Positions 2,711 through 47,782 of a DNA stretch of 47,782 bases are shown piece by piece (positions within the stretch are counted from its first letter, which is position 1; each line of letters begins with the position of its first letter). The notes beneath the pieces were generated by a model that was not told the origin of the DNA, did no database searches, and saw only the letters and a program-made list of their open reading frames with translations. The stretch lies in NCBI GenBank assembly GCA_964471535.1, contig CAYYHA010000003.1, positions 18,031-65,812 on the forward strand, written 5' to 3'. This DNA is from an uncultured Myxococcia bacterium (GTDB taxonomy: Bacteria; Myxococcota; Myxococcia; SLRQ01). Position numbers and translations under genes: made by a program.

Positions 2711-5572
<2,862 letters not shown>

Positions 5573-5807
5573 CGCCGCCATAGATGGCCTCTCCCGGGGC
5601 ACCTTGCAAGCCTCCCCCCGGCGGCGGCCGAGGAGGGGCCGGAAGCGCCCCCGCGCCGGGAGCACAGCCGGACTGGGAGGCGGGGCCGGAAGTGTTGCGA
5701 TCCGGTGCGACGTGCTGCACCGAATCTCGTGCCCGCAACCGAGGATGGGGCCGCGTCTCCCGAGCCGAGCCGCGGCTTTGCTCCCAGTTCCTGCGGTATT
5801 GGCGGCC

Positions 5808-5823
5808 TGGCCTGCCCCTTGCT
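5808..5823 (+). promoter_or_regulatory. Candidate sigma-54 (-24/-12) promoter for the RpoH-like sigma gene
   Basis: TGGCCTGCCCCTTGCT = GG-N10-GC with TTGCT at -12, ending 13 nt before the ATG at 5837. Confidence 0.4.
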
Positions 5824-5836
5824 TCCTCCAAGGGGC

Positions 5837-6712
5837 ATGCAGCGCCTTAGCCGAGATACCGAGTTCCAACGCTATGCCCGGGAGGTGGGCCGCCACCCCC
5901 TCCTTTCACCCGCGGAGGAACGTGCCCTCGCCGAACGGGCGCGCGCCGGCGATGCGGAGGCGCGGCAGCGCCTCGTGGAGGCGAACCTCCGCTTCGTCAT
6001 CCGAATCGCCCTACAGTACCGGGGCTACGGGCTCCGCCTCCTCGACCTCGTGCAGGAGGGGAACATCGGGCTCATCAAGGCGATCGAGCGCTTCGAACCG
6101 GAGCGCGGTCTGCGACTGGTCACCTACGCGGTCCACTGGATTCGCGCCCAGATTCGCGCCTACATCCTCCGCGAGTGGAGCCTGGTGCGGGTGGGGGTCA
6201 CCCATGCCGAGCGCCGCCTCTTCTTCTCCCTGCCCAGCGCCCGCCGGGCCTTGGGCGACCTGGTGGAACGGGACCCGGCGCGGGCCCGGCGGATCCTCGC
6301 CGAGCGGCTGGGCGTCACGGAGGAGGCGATCCGGCAGACCGAGCGCCGCCTCTATGCCCGGGACCGATCCACGAGCAGCCCCGTCCCCGGCACCGACGAG
6401 TCGCTGCACCTCGAGGACCTCCTCGTCTCGGAGGACGAGAGTGCCCTCGAGGAGGCGACCTTGGAGGCCTTCGAGGCCCATCGGACCCGCGACGCGATCA
6501 GCCGGGCCCTCGACGCCCTCGACGAACGGCAGCGGCTCATCATCCGGCGGCGCTACCTCTCCGACGAGAAGGTGACGCTGCGGGAGTTGGGTGACGAGCT
6601 GGGGATCTCGCGGGAGCGGGTGCGACAGATCGAAGGGGCGGCTCGCCGGCGCCTCGGCGAAGCCATCGGTCGCATCGCGCCCGATCTCGCCGAAGCCGGC
6701 TCCGCCGCCTAG
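5837..6712 (+). CDS. RNA polymerase sigma factor, sigma-32/RpoH-like (myxobacterial SigB/C/E type)
   Basis: Region 1.2 [12 protein letters not shown], region 2 LVEANLRFV...[19 protein letters not shown]...[11 protein letters not shown], RpoH-box-like ERRLFFSL, region 4 [20 protein letters not shown]. Confidence 0.9.
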
Positions 6713-39430: not shown

Positions 39431-42400
39431 TCAGGCCCTGGCGCCTTCGCCCACCTCGCGGAGTCGCGGCTCGACGAGCCGGAGCGCAAGCCTCACCTCG
39501 TGGTGGGTCTCGGCCAAGCCCCGTCCCGCGTTCAGGATCGCCTGCGCCTCCACCAGATGGCCCCCTCGCGCCTCCCCGGGCGGCGACAGCTCCGCGTGGC
39601 TCACGTGGAGCAGGGCTCGCAGGACGTCTGCGGCGCCGCGCAGCCCAGGGTCCGAGACCTCGCCTGCGATCGCCCGGACCTCCTCGAAGAGCGACTCGGC
39701 GGCCCAGGGGTCCCCGCGCAGGCACTCCACGACGGCGAGATAGGCGCACGCGAGAAGCTGCGGGCCACGTTGGCCGACCTCGCGCGCGTCGTCGCCGGCT
39801 TGCTTCAGCCACGCCTCCGCCCGGTCCAGACGGCCCTGGTGGGCATGGATGATCCCGAGGTAGGTCTTGCACTCGATTTCGAAGTGGCGGTTGCCGAGCC
39901 TCTCGTGGGCCCTGCGCGCTGCCTCGTACGCCTCGAGCGCCGCATCCAGCCGGCCGGCATCGAGCCGGCACAGCCCAAGGTAAGAGAGCACCGCGGCCTC
40001 CGAGCGCTGATTTCCCACCTCGCGATGCGCCCGGAGCGCCTCTGTCAGGATCTGCTCCGCCCGGCGGTAGTCGCGCCGTGCGACGTGGGTGAGAGCCAGG
40101 TTTCCCAAGAACATGGCCTCGTGTCGGCGGTCCCCAAGCTCCCTGAGCCGGGTGATGGCCCGGTGGTACCACCGTGCCCCTGCTTCGTAGTCGCCAAGGC
40201 TGCTGCAGGTGCCACCGACGTTGCCCATCGCCAGCGCCTCGAGCCGCAGGTCGCCGGCGTCGCGGGCGAGCTGTGCCGCCTCCTCCTGAAGCTTCTTGGC
40301 GCGTTCGACCTCGCCACGGACCGCGGCAAAGGTGCCCATCAGGCGCTTTCCATGGCTGCGCAGGGCCGGATCTTCAGCCTCGAGGAGCCGCGCCGCCATC
40401 GCTTCGCCTTCCTCGTGCTCTCCGAGGCGGAAGAGGAGCCGTCCCCGGCGCCACACCAGCTCGAGGGACAGCCGTTCATCGGCAACAGATGCGGCGAGCT
40501 GGTAGGCGCGGTCGAGGAGCCGGCGATGCGCGTCACCTGGGCCACGCCCGTCGAGCACGGTGTCGGCCACAAGGGCTGCACGCACGGCATCCCGGGGTGA
40601 ATCTGCGGCGGCTCGCTCGAACACGGCGAGCAGGTTCTCAAGTTCGCGCCGGAGCATCCGAAGCATCAGCGGGCCAGCAGGACCGGCGGTAGCCCGTGCC
40701 CAGAGTTCGCCGTGCTCCAGGAAATAGCGCGCGTGTCGCTTCGTGGCCTCCCTCGTGGCGCCGCAGGCATCGAGCTTCTCTGCCGCAAGGGCGTGCACCG
40801 ACTCGAAGAGCGCATACCGCGGCGTTCCGGACGCCGGCGCCTCGACCTGCCGCAGCAGGGACTTCCCTTCCAGGCTCTGCACGACCGTGGAGATCTCAAA
40901 CCCTGCTTCTGCCCCGTCGAGGACCACCACGGCCTCCGCCGCGTCGAGATCGAAGCCGCCACGGAAGACCGAGAGCTGGGCGAGCGTCGTTCGTTCCGCC
41001 TGCGAGAGCATTTCCCACGACCACTCGATGGCCGCCCGGAGGCTCTCCCATTTGGCGCCGGCCGCTCCCCGCAAGAGGTCGAGGCGCCGATCGATGCGCG
41101 CGAGCAGCTGCGACGGGGCGAAGACATCGGACCGCGCAGCAGCCAGCTCGATGGCCAGGGGCATGCAATCGAGTCGTCGGACCAGCTCCATCAGGGGCGC
41201 CTGCTCCGCCTCTTCCAGACTGAAGTCTGGGCGCACCGCGCGTGCCCGCGAGAGGAAGAGGTCGATCGCCTCCTCCACCTCGAGACCGGCGAGGGGAATC
41301 TCCCGCTCCTCGGGGAGGCGCAGCGGGTGACGCGATGTGAGCAGGTAGCGGAGCCGCGGGAGGCTGCTGCACCACCGCTCGAGAAGCCGCCGAACCGTGC
41401 GGTCGACCTGTTCTACGTTGTCGACGATGAGCAGGGCCTCCCCCATCCCTGCGAGGGCCTGTGTGAGCGCCTCCTCTGCTGCCTCGGGCTCGCGAACTCC
41501 GTCGAGAGGCACTGCGAGGGCCTCGGCAAAGGCGTAGTACACCCCGGAGGCACTGCGTGCCTCGGAGAGATCGACGAAGCACACGCCACCAGGGAAAGCA
41601 GCCGCGGCTCGTGGGTCGTGCGCGAGCCTGAGGGCCAAGGTGGTTTTGCCAGCGCCTCCGGGGCCGCGTAGCGTCACGACCGGCGCCTCGTCGAGCGCCT
41701 GCACCAAGGCCCGCAGCTCCGCCTCCCGGCCGACGAACGCGGAAGGGGGTGGGGGAAGACGCAGCCCACGCAGCGAGCCTTCCAGCGTGATTGCGAAGGT
41801 GCTCGCAACGGTCGGCACAGGCATCCCCGTCTGCTCCACCTCGGCGATCTCCGCCCTCGCCTCGAGGCGTGCCCTCGCCTCCTGCACCACCGCTCCGATC
41901 CGGGCGGCGGAGGGGATGATACCCAGCGCGGGAAAGAGCGCTTCGAGGCCATCGGCGAACACCCCGCAGCCCGCTGGGCGATCCTCGCGCCGCCGAGAGA
42001 GCACTCGCAGCACCCACGCCTCCAGGGCCGCTGCATAGCTCGGTACCACGGTGCTCGGGGGTGGCGGTGCGCACGCAATCACCTGCCGCAGGATCTCGTG
42101 ATCACTCTCGCCGTCGAAAGGCCGCACGCCGGTGGTCAGCTCATAGAGGACGACACCGAGTGAGAACAGGTCACTGCGCGCATCGACGTGCTCTCCCAAT
42201 GCCTGCTCGGGTGAAGCATAGCGGGCCTTTCCCACAAAGGTATCTGACGGCAAATCCGTGCGCTGCGTACGTGCGCGTGCGATTCCAAAGTCGAGGATCT
42301 TCACCGCCCCATCGACGGTGACGAGCACATTTTCGGGAGAAACGTCACGGTGGACGATTCCCAAGGGCCGCCCCTCTGTGTCACACTTCGTATGCGCATA

Positions 42401-42826
42401 CTCGAGTCCTCGGGCCATCCCCACGACGATGGGAAGGGCGACATCCAACGGCAGCGGACCACCCATGGAGCGAAGGATCTGCCGCACGGTGAGACCCTCG
42501 AGGTACTCCATCGCGATGAACCACTGGCCGCTCTCGGCCTGTCCCACCTCGTAGATCTGCACGATGTTGGGATGGCGTAGGTCGGCGGCGGTTCGTGCCT
42601 CGTCCAGGAAGAGGCCAACGAAGCTCTCGTTCTCCGCAAGGTGCGGCAGGATCCGTTTGAGAACGACGAGTTTCTCGAAGCCCACGGCGCCGGCTTGGCG
42701 CGCGAGCAACACCTCCGCCATTCCGCCCCGGGCGAGTGGCCTCTGGATCTCGTAGCGGTCGCCGATGCGCCCTCGAGCCACGACCCTCGAGCCTAGCAGC
42801 TTCTGTGAAGGTGCCGCATGGCGCAT
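39431..42826 (-). CDS. Ser/Thr kinase fused to a STAND-like (NB-ARC/AfsR-type) NTPase and TPR repeats
   Basis: ARGGMAEV, VVLKRI, HRDVSPEN, DFGIA, YASPE; FVGREAEL, GPGGAGKT, LLIVDNVE, LDCMPLAIELAA; C-terminal TPRs. Confidence 0.92.
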   Translation of the reverse strand: MRHAAPSQKLLGSRVVARGRIGDRYEIQRPLARGGMAEVLLARQAGAVGFEKLVVLKRILPHLAENESFVGLFLDEARTAADLRHPNIVQIYEVGQAESGQWFIAMEYLEGLTVRQILRSMGGPLPLDVALPIVVGMARGLEYAHTKCDTEGRPLGIVHRDVSPENVLVTVDGAVKILDFGIARARTQRTDLPSDTFVGKARYASPEQALGEHVDARSDLFSLGVVLYELTTGVRPFDGESDHEILRQVIACAPPPPSTVVPSYAAALEAWVLRVLSRRREDRPAGCGVFADGLEALFPALGIIPSAARIGAVVQEARARLEARAEIAEVEQTGMPVPTVASTFAITLEGSLRGLRLPPPPSAFVGREAELRALVQALDEAPVVTLRGPGGAGKTTLALRLAHDPRAAAAFPGGVCFVDLSEARSASGVYYAFAEALAVPLDGVREPEAAEEALTQALAGMGEALLIVDNVEQVDRTVRRLLERWCSSLPRLRYLLTSRHPLRLPEEREIPLAGLEVEEAIDLFLSRARAVRPDFSLEEAEQAPLMELVRRLDCMPLAIELAAARSDVFAPSQLLARIDRRLDLLRGAAGAKWESLRAAIEWSWEMLSQAERTTLAQLSVFRGGFDLDAAEAVVVLDGAEAGFEISTVVQSLEGKSLLRQVEAPASGTPRYALFESVHALAAEKLDACGATREATKRHARYFLEHGELWARATAGPAGPLMLRMLRRELENLLAVFERAAADSPRDAVRAALVADTVLDGRGPGDAHRRLLDRAYQLAASVADERLSLELVWRRGRLLFRLGEHEEGEAMAARLLEAEDPALRSHGKRLMGTFAAVRGEVERAKKLQEEAAQLARDAGDLRLEALAMGNVGGTCSSLGDYEAGARWYHRAITRLRELGDRRHEAMFLGNLALTHVARRDYRRAEQILTEALRAHREVGNQRSEAAVLSYLGLCRLDAGRLDAALEAYEAARRAHERLGNRHFEIECKTYLGIIHAHQGRLDRAEAWLKQAGDDAREVGQRGPQLLACAYLAVVECLRGDPWAAESLFEEVRAIAGEVSDPGLRGAADVLRALLHVSHAELSPPGEARGGHLVEAQAILNAGRGLAETHHEVRLALRLVEPRLREVGEGARA

Positions 42827-42882
42827 TTGCTCCTCCCACGGACCGTTGACGGCCGCATCGGCGATAGAGGAACGTCCCGGCC

Positions 42883-43794
42883 ATGCTAGGCATCGATCTT
42901 TCTGGCAAGCATGCATTCGTCGCCGGCGTGGCGGACGACGGTGGCTTCGGTTTCGCCATCGCCAAGGCACTGGCCGAGGCGGGCGCTACGGTCTCGGTGG
43001 GAACCTGGCCGCCGGCGCTGGGCATCTTCACCAAGCTACTCGACCGGGGGAAGCTCGATGAATCGCTGACCCTCTCCGACGGGTCGAAGATGCGCTTCGA
43101 GCGCATCTATCCCCTCGATGCCGCCTACGACCGCCTCGAGGAGGTGCCCGAGGAGATCCGCACCCACCGGCGCTACAAGGACGCCGGAGACTTCACCATC
43201 GACGGCGTGGCCCAAAGGCTCCGCGAGGATTTCGGCGAAGGCGGGGTCCACATCGTCGTCCACAGCCTCGCCAACGGGCCCGAGGTCAAGAACCCTCTGC
43301 TGGAGACGAGCCGTGGGGGCTATCTCGCCGCACTGAGCGCCAGCGCCTACTCCTTCGTCTCGATGGTGCAGCGCCTTGGGCCCATCGCAGCGCGTGGCAC
43401 TGCATTCCTGGCTCTCACGTACATGGCCAGCCAGCGGGTCATCCCCGGCTATGGCGGCGGCATGGCGGCAGCGAAGGCGGCGCTCGAATGCGACGCGCGC
43501 TTCCTCGCCTACGAGGCGGGCCGCAAGTGGGGACACCGGGTGAACCTCATCAGTGCCGGGCCCTACGCCTCTCGCGCCGCGTCCGCCATTGGCTTCATCC
43601 AGCAGATGATCACGTACTGCAAGGCGAACTCGCCGCTGCCCGAAGCCCTTGCGGCCCACGAGGTGGGCCATACGGCCGCCTTCCTCTCCAGTCCCCTTGC
43701 CAGCGGGATCACAGGGACCATCGTCTATGTGGACAAGGGCTATCACGCGATGGGAATGGCCGTCGATTCGGTGGAAACCCCCGCGACCCCCTGA
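42883..43794 (+). CDS. fabI: Enoyl-ACP reductase, plant/chlamydial type
   Basis: IDLSGKHAFVAGVADDGGFG, GTWPPAL, YPLDA, VHSLANGPEV, YGGGMAAAKAALE, NLISAGP, VYVDKG. Confidence 0.93.
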   Translation: MLGIDLSGKHAFVAGVADDGGFGFAIAKALAEAGATVSVGTWPPALGIFTKLLDRGKLDESLTLSDGSKMRFERIYPLDAAYDRLEEVPEEIRTHRRYKDAGDFTIDGVAQRLREDFGEGGVHIVVHSLANGPEVKNPLLETSRGGYLAALSASAYSFVSMVQRLGPIAARGTAFLALTYMASQRVIPGYGGGMAAAKAALECDARFLAYEAGRKWGHRVNLISAGPYASRAASAIGFIQQMITYCKANSPLPEALAAHEVGHTAAFLSSPLASGITGTIVYVDKGYHAMGMAVDSVETPATP

Positions 43795-44393: not shown

Positions 44394-44866
44394 TCGGGAT
44401 CGTCCTCGCCGTCCTCGCCGCGAGCCTGTCCACGCCCGAGGGGCAGGTCACCCTCCACCTTCCGGAGGACCCCATCCGGGAACTCATCCCGACCCGATTC
44501 GAGGTGCGTGGAAGCCCCGCCGCTCTCGATGCGCTGCGCCTGAGCTTGCTGCCCGCCGACGCACGCCGGCGAGCGGTGCCGCCCGAACGGCTCGCGCTGG
44601 TCCGAAGTGGCCCCGAGCGCGCCTACGTGGACTACACCTTTCGTAGCGGGGGCCACTATGCGCTGCGTCTCGCCGTGGGCGAGGCTCATACGCAGGCGTC
44701 GCTGGAGGTGCAGCCGCAGGAGTGGATGACCTTCCCGCTCCAGTTTGGCCTCTTCACAGCGGGAGTCGTCCTTCTGGTCGTTCTTCTCTTCGGTCTTGCC
44801 CACTGGCTCCGCCACCGCGCCCTTCGAGAGAGTCCCGACGCACCCGGCGGGCCACTAGCACGGTAA
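44390..44866 (+). CDS. Exported beta-sandwich (FixH/YtkA-like) protein with C-terminal TM anchor
   Basis: GTG start, short signal; YVDYTFRSGGHYALRLAV; C-terminal TM FGLFTAGVVLLVVLLFGLA. Confidence 0.55.
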   Translation: MIGIVLAVLAASLSTPEGQVTLHLPEDPIRELIPTRFEVRGSPAALDALRLSLLPADARRRAVPPERLALVRSGPERAYVDYTFRSGGHYALRLAVGEAHTQASLEVQPQEWMTFPLQFGLFTAGVVLLVVLLFGLAHWLRHRALRESPDAPGGPLAR

Positions 44867-44939
44867 AGGCGAAGATCCCCAGCGCGAGCATCAGCTCGGT
44901 CAGGTGGAGGATCATGTCGAAGAGCTGCAAATCCGTCAT
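44754..44939 (-). CDS. Possible small single-TM peptide at the end of the cco operon
   Basis: MTDLQLFDMILHLTELMLALGIFAFTVLVARRVRR, preceded by AAGGTGG; overlaps the convergent gene by 113 nt. Confidence 0.35.
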   Translation of the reverse strand: MTDLQLFDMILHLTELMLALGIFAFTVLVARRVRRDSLEGRGGGASGQDRREERPEGRLPL

Positions 44940-45008
44940 GGGCCAGACCACCTTGGAATCGGTCGCCGCCTTGCGGCAGGCCGTCGGTCCGCCATCAAAC
45001 TCGCCACA

Positions 45009-45182
45009 TCACTTGGGGAAGGCCGGAACCATGTACATCGCCACGTAGGCGATCATCCACGCGAAGAAGGCAACCCAGACGAAGAGGAGCGCGATGGGGA
45101 TCTTGTTCCCGACGTAGTCGACCCGGGTCTTCTCGGAGGGCGCGCCTTCCTCGACGACCTTCTCTTCTCTGCTTTCACTCAT
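45009..45182 (-). CDS. 57-aa peptide resembling the CcoP/FixP N-terminal membrane segment
   Basis: Translated by hand (below the ORF-track cutoff): MSESREEKVVEEGAPSEKTRVDYVGNKIPIALLFVWVAFFAWMIAYVAMYMVPAFPK; ATGA overlap with the upstream gene. Confidence 0.65.
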   Translation of the reverse strand: MSESREEKVVEEGAPSEKTRVDYVGNKIPIALLFVWVAFFAWMIAYVAMYMVPAFPK

Positions 45183-45391
45183 GGAATCTCCTCCAACGGA
45201 ACCGTATCCTCACCTTCCGCCTCGAGCGGGGCCGACGCGAGGCTGCGTTCACTAGACAGGTGGCCGGTCAGAACCCCCCAGACGATGAAGAGGATGAGGC
45301 TGCCAACGCCACAGCCGATGATGATCCCCAAGAAGAGGATCAGCTCGGAGGAATCGACGCCGCAATAGAAGCACCCAAGGGGCCCGCTCAT
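45179..45391 (-). CDS. 70-aa CcoS-like membrane peptide with N-terminal CxxC
   Basis: MSGPLGCFYCG...LILFIVWGVLTGHL; ATGA overlaps at both ends. Confidence 0.6.
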   Translation of the reverse strand: MSGPLGCFYCGVDSSELILFLGIIIGCGVGSLILFIVWGVLTGHLSSERSLASAPLEAEGEDTVPLEEIP

Positions 45392-45624
45392 CGCCGCGCC
45401 TCGATCTCGAAGAGGTCCTCTTTGATTTCCTCGTAATCGGTGAACTGCCCCCGGACGAAGGCCCACCCAACGACGCAGAGGAAGCCCATCGCCGCCAGCG
45501 CATAGGCTATCGCCGAGAGCGCCATCATCGTCCCGAGGCGACCGGTGACGAGCACGAAGGCGATGAGCCCCAAGAGCGCAGCGAAGGTCACGAGGAAGAG
45601 GACACCGACAACCCACGGTTTCAT
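45388..45624 (-). CDS. ccoS: cbb3 oxidase assembly protein, CcoS-like (2 TM)
   Basis: WAFVRGQFTDYEEIK fits the CcoS WAxxxGQFxD motif; ATGA overlap with ccoO. Confidence 0.7.
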   Translation of the reverse strand: MKPWVVGVLFLVTFAALLGLIAFVLVTGRLGTMMALSAIAYALAAMGFLCVVGWAFVRGQFTDYEEIKEDLFEIEARR

Positions 45625-46208
45625 GGCAAACCCTCCGCGCGGCGCTCGAGTTCCAGTTCGTCCGGGACCTCGGCCCAACTTCCCAGCCACATCACATACG
45701 CGGTGAGATCGACGAGATCCTTCGTCGGCTCGCCGTCGTCCGTGTAGTACCAGGGGAAGGAGGGCATCACACTCTCGGGTACGACGTTCCTGGGATTGTA
45801 GAAATGGGCGAAATGCCAGTCCTTGCTGTGCTTGTTCGACTCGCGAATGAGGTCGGGCCCGACGCGCCGCGTCCCGAAGAGCTGCGGCAGCTGCAGCTCG
45901 TTCTGGTATTCGCCCGCCGTGGACACCGGGCCGTAGTACAGCGCCTCGTTGCCGACCGGCCGCACATATTGGCTGTGGCAGTGCCAGCAGCCCTCTGAGA
46001 CGTAGATATCCCGGCCATGGCGCAGGCCATCCATATAGGCCTCGGGTGAGTCGTAGTCCTCTTCGAACTGCCAGGGGACCTCGTCGATCTGAAGCGGCTC
46101 CACCTCGGTCTTGTCGAGAACGAGCCACGGGCCGAGGCCAAGCGTCGTGAAGGCGAAGGCGAAGAGCAAGACGCCGCCAACGACAAAGATGAAGGAGAAG
46201 CGTTCCAT
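45621..46208 (-). CDS. ccoO: cbb3-type cytochrome c oxidase subunit II
   Basis: TM anchor; GRDIYVSEGCWHCHSQYVRP, GTRRVGPDL, HFYNPRNVVPESVMPSFPW. Confidence 0.95.
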   Translation of the reverse strand: MERFSFIFVVGGVLLFAFAFTTLGLGPWLVLDKTEVEPLQIDEVPWQFEEDYDSPEAYMDGLRHGRDIYVSEGCWHCHSQYVRPVGNEALYYGPVSTAGEYQNELQLPQLFGTRRVGPDLIRESNKHSKDWHFAHFYNPRNVVPESVMPSFPWYYTDDGEPTKDLVDLTAYVMWLGSWAEVPDELELERRAEGLP

Positions 46209-47626
46209 CAGGCTGCCTCCAACTCACCTCGAGCACCCTCGCTGCTCGGCGAGCGCAGCGAGAGGAGCAGGTTGAGCACGAACATCACCTGGCCGACGAA
46301 GATGAGCAGGCCGGAGAGGAGCCGCACGAACCAGTAGGGCTTGATGGCGACCATCGTATCGACGAAGGGCACCATGGCCTTCCACATGTAGCCCTGCTGC
46401 AGTCCGGCGATGCCGAGGACGACCCACATCAGCCACAACCCGATTGTCGAGAGCCAGAAGTGCCATTCGGCGAGCGCCCGGCTGAAGAGCGGGCGGCCGG
46501 TGAGCCGCGGCCACAGGTAGTAGATCCAGGCGAAGATCCAGAAGCTGAACACACCGAAGAGCACCAGGTGCGCATGCCCGGGCACCCAATCGGTGAAGTG
46601 AATGATCTCCTGTACCGAGAGGGTCACGTGGATTGCGCACTGAATGCAGGTCACCAGATAGGCGATGATGCCGGCGACGACGAACTTCAGAGAGGTGGAC
46701 TGCACGAGCTGGCGGAAGCCGTCACGGCCCATCGTGGCCAGCATGTTGTACACGACCGTGTACACGACGACATGAACCCCCACGCTCGCCACCACGCTCG
46801 CGTACTGCGCCCACATCGGGATGGGGCTATAGAGGTAGTGGTGGCTGCTGTTGAGCGGATAGAAGAAGGCCAGCCCCCAGAAGCCAATGAGCGAGAGCGC
46901 ATGGCTGTACAGCGGCTTCTTCACCAACAGCGGCAGCAGGTAATAGATGATGCCGATGCCGACCGGCGTGACGAAGAGGCCCACCAGGTCGTGGATGTAC
47001 ATCGACGTGATCGCCGCCCCACCCGTTCCCGGGACCAGATACTGGGGCAGGAAGTTGCCCATCAGGTAGGTCAGGGCGGTCCAGACCAGTGCGCCCACGA
47101 CGTACCAGATCGTCACATAGAAACGCTTGGCCCGCGCCTTGATGATCGGCGTGAAGATGTTCACGCAGAAGAGGACGTAGAAGACCACCACGATGGGATC
47201 GGCCCACGTGGGATTCTCACCCCACTCGAGCGCCTGGGCCTGCCCACCCAGGATGCCGATGGCACCTGCGATGTAGATACCGTTCCAGCCGAAGAGCGTG
47301 AGGTAGCCCAGCTTCTCCGACAGGATGCGTTGGCCGGTGAGCTTGGGGACGACGTAGTAGAGGATCCCCATGAACGCACTGGCGATCCACGCATACGCCA
47401 CCGTCTGCGTGTGCAGCATGCGCACCCGAGCCGGCGCGAGGAACTCGATCCCCTCGAAGGGGTACCAGCCTACGAACTGCAGCGCGAAGGAGAGGCCGGC
47501 GAGCACCACCAGCACGATGTAGCCCACGGAGAAGTAGAGATGGGCGCGGACCAGGTCGTAGCTGACCAGCGGCAACGCCTCATCCTTGTCCGGCGCGGCG
47601 ACGGCTCCTGCGGTCGCGGTCGTCAT
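46208..47626 (-). CDS. ccoN: Divergent cbb3-type (C-family) heme-copper oxidase subunit I
   Basis: About 12 TM; RMLHT, YIHDLVG, FYPLNSSHH, HFTDWVPGHAH: six His ligands plus the helix-VII Tyr. Confidence 0.9.
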   Translation of the reverse strand: MTTATAGAVAAPDKDEALPLVSYDLVRAHLYFSVGYIVLVVLAGLSFALQFVGWYPFEGIEFLAPARVRMLHTQTVAYAWIASAFMGILYYVVPKLTGQRILSEKLGYLTLFGWNGIYIAGAIGILGGQAQALEWGENPTWADPIVVVFYVLFCVNIFTPIIKARAKRFYVTIWYVVGALVWTALTYLMGNFLPQYLVPGTGGAAITSMYIHDLVGLFVTPVGIGIIYYLLPLLVKKPLYSHALSLIGFWGLAFFYPLNSSHHYLYSPIPMWAQYASVVASVGVHVVVYTVVYNMLATMGRDGFRQLVQSTSLKFVVAGIIAYLVTCIQCAIHVTLSVQEIIHFTDWVPGHAHLVLFGVFSFWIFAWIYYLWPRLTGRPLFSRALAEWHFWLSTIGLWLMWVVLGIAGLQQGYMWKAMVPFVDTMVAIKPYWFVRLLSGLLIFVGQVMFVLNLLLSLRSPSSEGARGELEAA

Positions 47627-47781
47627 CGTTCGTCTCCTTGGGGCTGGGCCTCGGCGTCACCGGTCGCGCCGGCATTCGCCTCCTCCGCAGGGGGACAGGT
47701 GTTCCAGAGCGTGCATGGGGGATCGAAGGCATCGGGGTCGGGGTCGCCCCGGTGCTTGATGATCTCGCGCACGTAGGCGAC
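47623..47781 (-). CDS. 3' end of an upstream gene, probably a c-type cytochrome (truncated by window)
   Basis: VAYVREIIKHRGDPDPDAFDPPCTLWNTCPP...QGDER*; VAYVR resembles the last helix of class I cytochrome c; ATGA overlap with ccoN. Confidence 0.5.
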   Translation of the reverse strand, partial: VAYVREIIKHRGDPDPDAFDPPCTLWNTCPPAEEANAGATGDAEAQPQGDER

Positions 47782-47782
47782 G

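Follow-up and report, generated by a model that had tools for sequence, protein, structure and literature searches.

In many bacteria, oxidases of the cbb3 type determine how little oxygen still suffices for aerobic respiration, and knowledge of their mechanism stems from one proteobacterial branch. Canonical 'proximal' enzymes are CcoNOQP (structures 3MK7/5DJQ from Pseudomonas stutzeri, 6XKW from Rhodobacter capsulatus and 8SMR from Pseudomonas aeruginosa) and the rhizobial FixNOQP. In P. stutzeri CcoN a glutamate that pairs with the proximal His of heme b3 (E323) is assigned a role in setting the very low potential of this heme, and a channel histidine (H243) a role in proton entry; the anchor of CcoP supplies a Glu at the channel mouth, and CcoS is an accessory factor connected with cofactor insertion. 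The K-type proton path of the C family reportedly consists of T215, Y223, S240, H243, Y251 and Y317, with the Glu of the CcoP anchor at its mouth. C-family enzymes have a single proton channel, which ends at a Tyr (an excerpt of PMC8079940), and O2 reduction depends on a cross-linked Tyr that new nitric oxide reductase (NOR) families do not have (an excerpt of Murali et al. 2024, PMC11214002). A second CcoN subtree, the 'distal' cbb3 oxidases, has a subunit composition unlike the proximal one (Ducluzeau, Ouchane and Nitschke 2008, as described in sections of PMC8788666 and PMC7029218). Passages of the latter two papers place distal ccoNO in Zetaproteobacteria and give its expression in Sideroxydans ES-1, an aerobic Fe/S oxidiser, as about three-fold above that of the proximal form.

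Here, we analysed a ccoN-like gene in a stretch of 47,782 nucleotides (the window) of contig CAYYHA010000003.1 from an uncultured Myxococcia bacterium (assembly GCA_964471535.1), for which an earlier reading of the letters (the sequence-only reading) had proposed a CcoN-like oxidase with a remodelled active site and proton channel. We determined the homology and fold of the product, the states of its residues and their conservation, the structure of the operon and the content of the genome. We consider it quite probable that ccoN encodes subunit I of a cytochrome-c-dependent, O2-reducing C-family oxidase from a large non-canonical branch, which is most likely part of the 'distal' cbb3 subtree.

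The reading frame is intact over 472 codons (Table 1) and the product matches Pfam COX1 at E 3.8e-68. The closest solved structures in HMMER searches were the cbb3 CcoN chains 6xkw, 9g6b, 3mk7, 9g83 and 8smr (E 7e-45 to 2e-39), with the NorB structures 4xyd (1e-10) and 3o0r (5e-7) far weaker. An AlphaFold2 model built from 116 homologs (predicted local distance difference test score 89.3, predicted template modelling score 0.91) has the 12-helix CcoN fold of the canonical enzymes. In Foldseek comparisons it gave template modelling (TM) scores of 0.86–0.88 with CcoN chains, 0.75–0.76 with NorB and about 0.7–0.78 with A/B-family subunit I; the structural check that the sequence-only reading had proposed thus places the protein closer to CcoN than to NorB. 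The fold is combined with the His ligands of heme b (two), heme b3 (one) and CuB (three), as in cbb3-type enzymes of the C family in the broad sense. However, the product scored 222.7 bits against the NCBIfam ccoN equivalog (TIGR00780), whose curated cut-off of 583.15 it does not reach. Because it resembles COX1 and CcoN but falls so far below this value, the gene product is a C-family enzyme of a non-canonical kind.

The pairing of residues was read from the HMMER alignments with three solved CcoN chains, 6xkw_n, 9g6b_A and 3mk7_A (E 7e-45 to 6e-42), in which the chain numbering is printed; MAFFT alignments yielded an identical pairing, and the motif coordinates were confirmed by re-translation. 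Identity to the canonical enzymes is about 26–27%. The metal-ligand histidines H72, H212, H262, H263, H351 and H353 pair with H60, H207, H257, H258, H345 and H347 of 3mk7, while E134, T220, Y228, H242, S245, Y256 and Y323 pair with E122, T215, Y223, Y237, S240, Y251 and Y317. The changed positions are D213 (N208), G248 (H243), Q329 (E323) and Cys330 (Gly324). Thus, as the sequence-only reading had it, all six metal-ligand His and the helix-VII Tyr are retained, helix VI reads SMYIHDLVGLF in place of WWYGHNAVGFF with an Asp beside the CuB His, the Glu of STFEGP is Gln in TCIQCA, and the channel His of LSIVHFW is Gly in LSLIGFW. An alignment to P. stutzeri CcoN, which that reading had proposed as a check, did not restore the canonical residues. 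The NOR-type Glu four residues after H212 is likewise absent, since this position is Gly216; MAFFT and BLASTP shift helix VI of NorB by four residues relative to the query, and the NorB states at columns 208–216 were left out.

In the next stage we assessed whether these states are shared by related proteins. A word-indexed protein search gave 1856 proteins at E ≤ 1e-10 among 8000 scored candidates, and the best 120 of them were taken, the full-length matches among them being 55–78% identical to the query. In an alignment of 120 rows (the query and 119 matches), Q329 was found in 120/120, G248 in 119/120 and D213 in 114/120 (Asn in the remaining 6), with Y256, H212, H262, H351, H353 and Gly216 each in 120/120. 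Tyr256 stands at the position of Y251, six residues before the HH pair; the six His and Tyr256 are also invariant in an alignment of 116 sequences (A1). Two peptides of the clade then served as queries against the GTDB species, each represented by one genome, whereby at least 597 stretches matched and 584 were confirmed. The clade is thus present in at least 584 species genomes, and the best 80 of the confirmed stretches, on which all counts per 80 loci below are based (contig ends cut some loci), all come from metagenome-assembled genomes. These are labelled Bdellovibrionota/Bacteriovoracaceae, Verrucomicrobiota, Planctomycetota, Binatia, Gemmatimonadota, Latescibacterota, Krumholzibacteriota, Acidobacteriota, Ignavibacteriota, Chitinophagales and Myxococcaceae. 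The motif SH..S..GFW occurs in 80/80 loci, [IL]HD in 78/80 (HN in 2), TC.QC[AS] in 79/80 and F[FV]YP....HH in 79/80. The substitutions are a signature of the clade and not a matter of chance.

Sampling was widened by an exhaustive HMMER search of 1.84 billion representatives of 50% clusters, which returned 2372 matches at E ≤ 1e-3 and 188 at E ≤ 1e-30, the top representative being just 44% identical to the query. An alignment of 121 rows was assembled from the query, 11 clade members, 12 genome loci of other phyla and 90 representatives of at least 420 aa (of 150 listed), together with two canonical CcoN/FixN and two non-canonical ccoN-like proteins from plasmids, two NorB and the genome's own A-family subunit. 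Its C-family rows with all six His number 71 (26 of the clade, 5 of the Paraburkholderia fungorum type, 8 canonical and 32 other). At positions 242/248/329 they read His/Gly/Gln in 45 cases, Tyr/His/Glu in 8, Tyr/Gly/Gln in 7 and other combinations in 11; as similarity to the query decided which rows were included, canonical enzymes are under-sampled and these figures show the breadth of Gly/Gln, not its natural frequency. Cys327 occurs also in 13 of the 32 other non-canonical rows. Cys330 was found in the clade only, its position being Gly in 37/37 other non-canonical and in 8/8 canonical rows. Within the clade the motif T-C-x-Q-C-A is invariant and puts a Cys-x-x-Cys around the Gln that faces the heme b3 proximal His; on these alignments, Cys330 appears to be a truly clade-specific change. 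Two side observations may be added. In the alignment, 47 of the 90 full-length representatives (e.g., P0130, P0147, P0153, P0156, P0181, P0203, P0229 and P0230) lack at least one metal-ligand His, and these CcoN-like membrane proteins apparently have no binuclear centre. Fused forms, presumably CcoN-CcoO or cytochrome c fusions, occur with both non-canonical and canonical CcoN (P0129, 897 aa; P0134, 971 aa; P0174, 947 aa; L093, an 818-aa reading frame with one CxxCH).

Two trees were built from these rows. The first held 68 rows (LG+G4, rooted on the A-family row), with the ligand-deficient rows removed except for two NorB, and also without six redundant clade rows and two poorly aligned ones (P0210 and P0254); the second held 48 rows (LG+C20 with posterior mean site frequencies, PMSF, rooted on NorB), with 27 further rows and the A-family row omitted. 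In both trees the query clade is well supported (99–100) and lies within C-family diversity, far from NorB, and its sister is the P. fungorum-type lineage (98–99). The sister lineage also carries I-H-D and His242, Ile211 and Asp213 being common to both. The Tyr/His/Glu rows form a single clade on a long stem (SH-aLRT, an approximate likelihood-ratio branch test, 100), nested among Gly/Gln lineages in both trees. Deep branches are weakly supported (80–90), so that a derived origin of the canonical state fits the trees, yet is not proven. In these rows the Gly248/Gln329 state is typical of its lineages, and the canonical His/Glu pair is confined to one clade, that of the model enzymes. The odd residues are the normal state of the branch, not a one-off remodelling. 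Hence, of the description given in the sequence-only reading, 'non-canonical C-family enzyme' stands on the equivalog score, whereas 'remodelled' has the polarity wrong, Gly and Gln being common outside the canonical clade.

Among known systems, the ccoN-like clusters on P. fungorum pBIL, on the Ralstonia solanacearum megaplasmid and on Sinorhizobium meliloti pSymA have 33–38% identity to the query, compared with 27–29% for canonical FixN. They share Gly248, Gln329 and c-type cytochrome genes upstream, and the pBIL type, which belongs to the sister clade, also I-H-D and His242. Unlike the query, they have no Cys330 (xSxQGS) and their accessory genes are a longer CcoO and a SCO protein. As a side observation, the ccoN-like gene at 4974..6430 of the pSymA locus of S. 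meliloti AK57 (L003) is annotated in pieces (4974–5369 and 6098–6430), is matched by three tblastn pieces and is probably disrupted. The likeness to the distal subtree, as the citing papers describe it, consists in the position of the query outside the canonical clade and in a subunit set other than NOQP. The cbb3 oxidase of Myxococcus xanthus (NmpR regulon, an excerpt of PMC11841059) was considered as a characterised relative and set aside: the 818-aa fused CcoNO of L093 is canonical (Y/H/E) and falls in another clade, and the link between L093 and M. xanthus is a guess.

The sequence-only reading had left the substrate open between O2 and NO. An enzyme that evolved from a C-family oxidase into a nitric oxide reductase as cNOR did, or that uses NO as its main physiological substrate, could be imagined here, as cNOR and qNOR have their closest relative in the C family and cbb3 enzymes have NO reductase side activity in vitro (excerpts of PMC11214002 and PMC8780969). 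The acidic Asp213 adjoins a metal ligand, and the canonical Glu and His are absent. The cNOR NorB proteins (P. aeruginosa 3O0R, Roseobacter denitrificans 4XYD and norCBQD on Azospirillum lipoferum AZO_p3) do share with the query their branch of the superfamily, a cytochrome c partner and the region of the Ca site. However, NorB has no Tyr and carries a Glu ligand four residues after the His, whereas the query clade has an invariant Tyr and, in every row, the Gly; the residues of the K-type path are kept as well, fold and sequence are much nearer to CcoN, and in the trees the clade lies inside C-family diversity. No norQ/norD-type neighbours were found around ccoN. NirK, NirS and cytochrome bd were searched for and not found in the genome, which is 95.4% complete (4.57 Mb in 420 contigs), so that there is no evident endogenous source of NO and a dedicated NO reductase would have no evident role. 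We thus regard a nitric oxide reductase as very improbable; NO reduction by this enzyme is unlikely, and the suggestion of an NO substrate is not borne out.

A different question is whether the changed residues affect the proton channel. T220, Y228, S245, Y256 and Y323, that is, five of the six path residues named above, are kept in 26/26 clade rows, the sixth (H243) being Gly; Glu134 of the Ca site, which the canonical enzymes also have, is kept in 25/26. The two His positions covary, for canonical rows combine Tyr237 with His243, and the clade and most other lineages His242 with Gly248; the Ralstonia-type lineage has Tyr at 242 and His at neither position. As helix VII begins at residue 242 in the AlphaFold2 model, His242 would stand at its cytoplasmic end, which suggests an alternative proton entry and not a lost one; being six residues apart, positions 242 and 248 would lie on different faces of the helix. 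Of the 'remodelled proton channel' in the sequence-only reading, the change from His to Gly is therefore confirmed, but a dismantled path is not. Nevertheless, one could propose that Gly248, Gln329 and Asp213 leave an O2 reducer that has lost proton pumping or whose O2 affinity is clearly altered, and which would be scavenging or protective rather than energy-conserving. Both the canonical His and the canonical Glu, with their roles in proton entry and heme potential, are changed here, and the CcoP anchor is replaced by a separate peptide. Yet five of the six path residues persist in all clade rows, with an invariant His near the cytoplasmic end of helix VII, and most non-canonical lineages share this state, among them genomes in which this is the only C-family enzyme. 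A respiratory enzyme in working order would explain such a distribution better than an impaired one, and we find the non-pumping proposal quite improbable.

The gene lies in a series of six in which neighbours overlap by 1–4 nt, in the order diheme cytochrome c, ccoN, ccoO, sp1, sp2 and sp3 (Table 1), and the contig runs 826 bases beyond the window end.

Table 1. Genes of the ccoN operon and motifs of its product, with positions in the window.
Feature	Position	Strand	Description
ccoN-like catalytic subunit I, C-family heme-copper oxidase	46208..47626	-	472 aa (P0001); COX1 match, CcoN alignments, AlphaFold2 model
Helix VI motif SMYIHDLVGLF	46973..47005	-	CuB ligand H212, adjoining D213, G216 at the position of the NOR Glu
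Helix VII start and body YSHALSLIGFWGLAFFYPLNSSHH	46838..46909	-	invariant H242 (canonical Tyr237), S245 (Ser240), G248 (His243), Y256 (cross-link Tyr251), CuB ligands H262/H263
TCIQCA	46634..46651	-	Q329 in place of the Glu partner of the heme b3 proximal His; invariant C327 and C330 on either side
Diheme cytochrome c gene, 3' end	47623..47782	-	whole gene 302 aa, to 48531 beyond the window (L002 2817..3725, -)
ccoO, monoheme cytochrome c subunit II	45621..46208	-	195 aa (P0002), one CxxCH; PF02433 FixO, E 2.9e-34
sp1, two-helix membrane peptide, CcoS/FixS-like	45388..45624	-	78 aa; ATGA overlap
sp2, peptide with C-x-x-C-x-x-D-S, then one membrane helix, FixS-like tail	45179..45391	-	70 aa
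sp3, single-helix peptide resembling the CcoP N-terminal anchor (FixP_N)	45009..45182	-	57 aa

The diheme cytochrome c, whose gene precedes ccoN with an ATGA overlap, has two CxxCH, two Cytochrome_CBB3 domains (PF13442, E 1.2e-23, 2 stretches) and a signal-like N-terminal segment. The monoheme CcoO (FixO) adjoins ccoN, as in the canonical enzymes, through a TGATG overlap. Conservation of the operon genes was scored by single-sequence phmmer, and matches at a fixed offset were obtained in the 80 loci for diheme cytochrome c in 74, ccoO in 76, sp1 in 36, sp2 in 38 and sp3 in 40. Pfam and NCBIfam scans of the window's own small peptides gave nothing significant, and family-wide scans were needed. 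In the sp1 family 14/26 members match Pfam FixS/CcoS (best E 4.2e-9), and in the sp2 family 3/28 match FixS (best E 3.6e-5), with C7, C10, D13 and S14 invariant. In the sp3 family 8/27 members match FixP_N (PF14715, best E 0.0013), and the family profile finds residues 25–51 of Rhizobium tropici CcoP by hmmsearch at E 1.2e-5 and its anchor by hhalign at E 7.7e-5 (probability 62%). No significant CcoQ match was found among the operon peptides. Unlike the canonical CcoNOQP arrangement, the operon therefore has no membrane-anchored diheme CcoP and no CcoQ after ccoO; the diheme domains are encoded by the upstream gene, the anchor is the 57-aa peptide, and two CcoS-like peptides are included. On these family matches, CcoP is divided in this operon between a periplasmic diheme protein and a stand-alone anchor peptide, and CcoS-like factors are encoded alongside.

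Some further features of these loci deserve mention. The C-x-x-C-x-x-D-S before the membrane helix of the sp2 family is a possible metal- or heme-handling motif (alignment A4). In Bdellovibrionota loci (L017, L019, L021, L023, L039 and others), further conserved reading frames of about 300–340, 112–138 and 70–96 aa follow a 55-aa peptide in the same orientation; they are absent after sp3 in the window. A fourth small reading frame (44754..44951, -) was dropped as an operon member, having a match in 1/80 loci, and no terminator was found after sp3. Elsewhere in the window, 39431..42970 (-) encodes a 1179-aa protein with a Ser/Thr kinase domain, a STAND/NB-ARC-type NTPase and TPR repeats.

The genome holds two PF00115 genes, namely one A-family oxidase and this ccoN, with no second C-family enzyme. 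As neither a bd oxidase nor a canonical cbb3 oxidase was found, this enzyme is the sole candidate for a high-affinity oxidase. Within the class, 17 of the 40 relatives compared carry a C-family gene at E ≤ 1e-20, none above 38% identity to the query; in the three relatives whose genes were inspected we found His/Ala/Gln, a canonical fused CcoNO, and His/Gly/Gln with TCFQGP. The patchy presence of the clade in this lineage suggests that ccoN was acquired by transfer. It could then also be a decaying or non-functional copy so gained, and the missing close ortholog is in line with patchy distribution or transfer. However, its frame is intact with all ligands present, the six overlapping genes are all intact, metagenome homologs reach 75–78% identity and the clade shows strong invariance, so that a decaying copy can hardly be the explanation. 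Two side observations concern cytochromes in this group. In a genome of the same family as that of the window (G003), a 583-aa protein with seven CxxCH (L094, 216..1967, +) is encoded directly upstream of the non-canonical ccoN with His/Gly/Gln and TCFQGP. In the genome under study, a weak FixO-like stretch (E 5.7e-6) lies within a 964-aa frame about 6 kb from the A-family oxidase gene (L091, G000:C6:44416-47646); it may belong to a different respiratory complex as a cytochrome c fusion. The sequencing runs that carry the stretch are DNA runs labelled hot springs metagenome.

From these results we infer the activity, the electron and proton paths and the redox tuning of an O2-reducing oxidase as follows. 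Electrons would pass from the periplasmic diheme cytochrome c of the upstream gene to the heme c of CcoO, on to heme b (H72/H353) and then to the heme b3-CuB centre (H351; H212, H262 and H263), where O2 would be reduced with the help of Tyr256. Protons would be taken from the cytoplasm through a K-type path lined by Y323, S245, Y228, T220 and Y256. At the cytoplasmic end of this path, His242 would take the place of the canonical His six residues deeper, and the free-standing FixP_N-like peptide that of the anchor of an intact CcoP. Gln329 could still form a hydrogen bond with the heme b3 proximal His, but it carries no charge, and heme b3 is thus probably tuned differently from that of the model enzymes; an altered redox tuning through Gln in place of Glu is plausible. 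The two CcoS-like peptides encoded in the operon probably assist cofactor insertion.

Several points weigh against this account. Two residues held important in the model enzymes are changed, Asp213 adjoins a CuB ligand, the invariant Cys330 has no explanation, and the product scores far under the NCBIfam ccoN cut-off. The 'relocated His' is a pattern of covariation and not a structural result. Searches of the genome, at its 95.4% completeness, with TIGR02745, PF03597 and PF05751 (CcoG, FixH and recognisable FixS) found nothing, so that ccoG and ccoH, unlike in canonical systems, were not found, and no search for ccoI was made. The lack of FixS in these family searches is explained by the CcoS-like peptides of the operon, though the window's own sp1 matches FixS at E 0.11 only. 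Among the sequencing runs listed for the stretch there was no RNA run. Finally, the literature searched, with most subscription journals outside it, yielded no characterised enzyme of the clade or of any Gly/Gln lineage and no paper on the Gln/Gly states or on the biochemistry of the clade; the activity is consequently inferred from homology alone.

Compared with the sequence-only reading, what is added here is that Gly and Gln are typical of their lineages, that the other channel residues are kept and a His lies upstream, that Cys330 is specific to the clade and that CcoP is split. The enzyme of the window is unremarkable within its large, mostly uncultured branch, and nothing exceptional is implied for it. 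That branch lacks two hallmark residues and has CcoP split into pieces, which calls for caution with automated 'cbb3' calls in metagenomes, as these include enzymes whose O2 affinity, proton pumping and heme b3 potential are not known to have been measured. A more far-reaching proposal would be that the Glu at the heme b3 proximal His and the channel His are late inventions of the canonical branch, that most lineages rely instead on Gln and on a His placed six residues closer to the cytoplasm, and that Asp213 and the Cys-x-x-Cys make the clade's enzyme a mechanistically distinct oxidase. We give this proposal a small chance of being right. If true, heme b3 could for instance have a higher potential or a thiol-based redox switch next to it, or the proton-loading site could be another one, and the properties of the model cbb3 enzymes would not generalise to the whole family.

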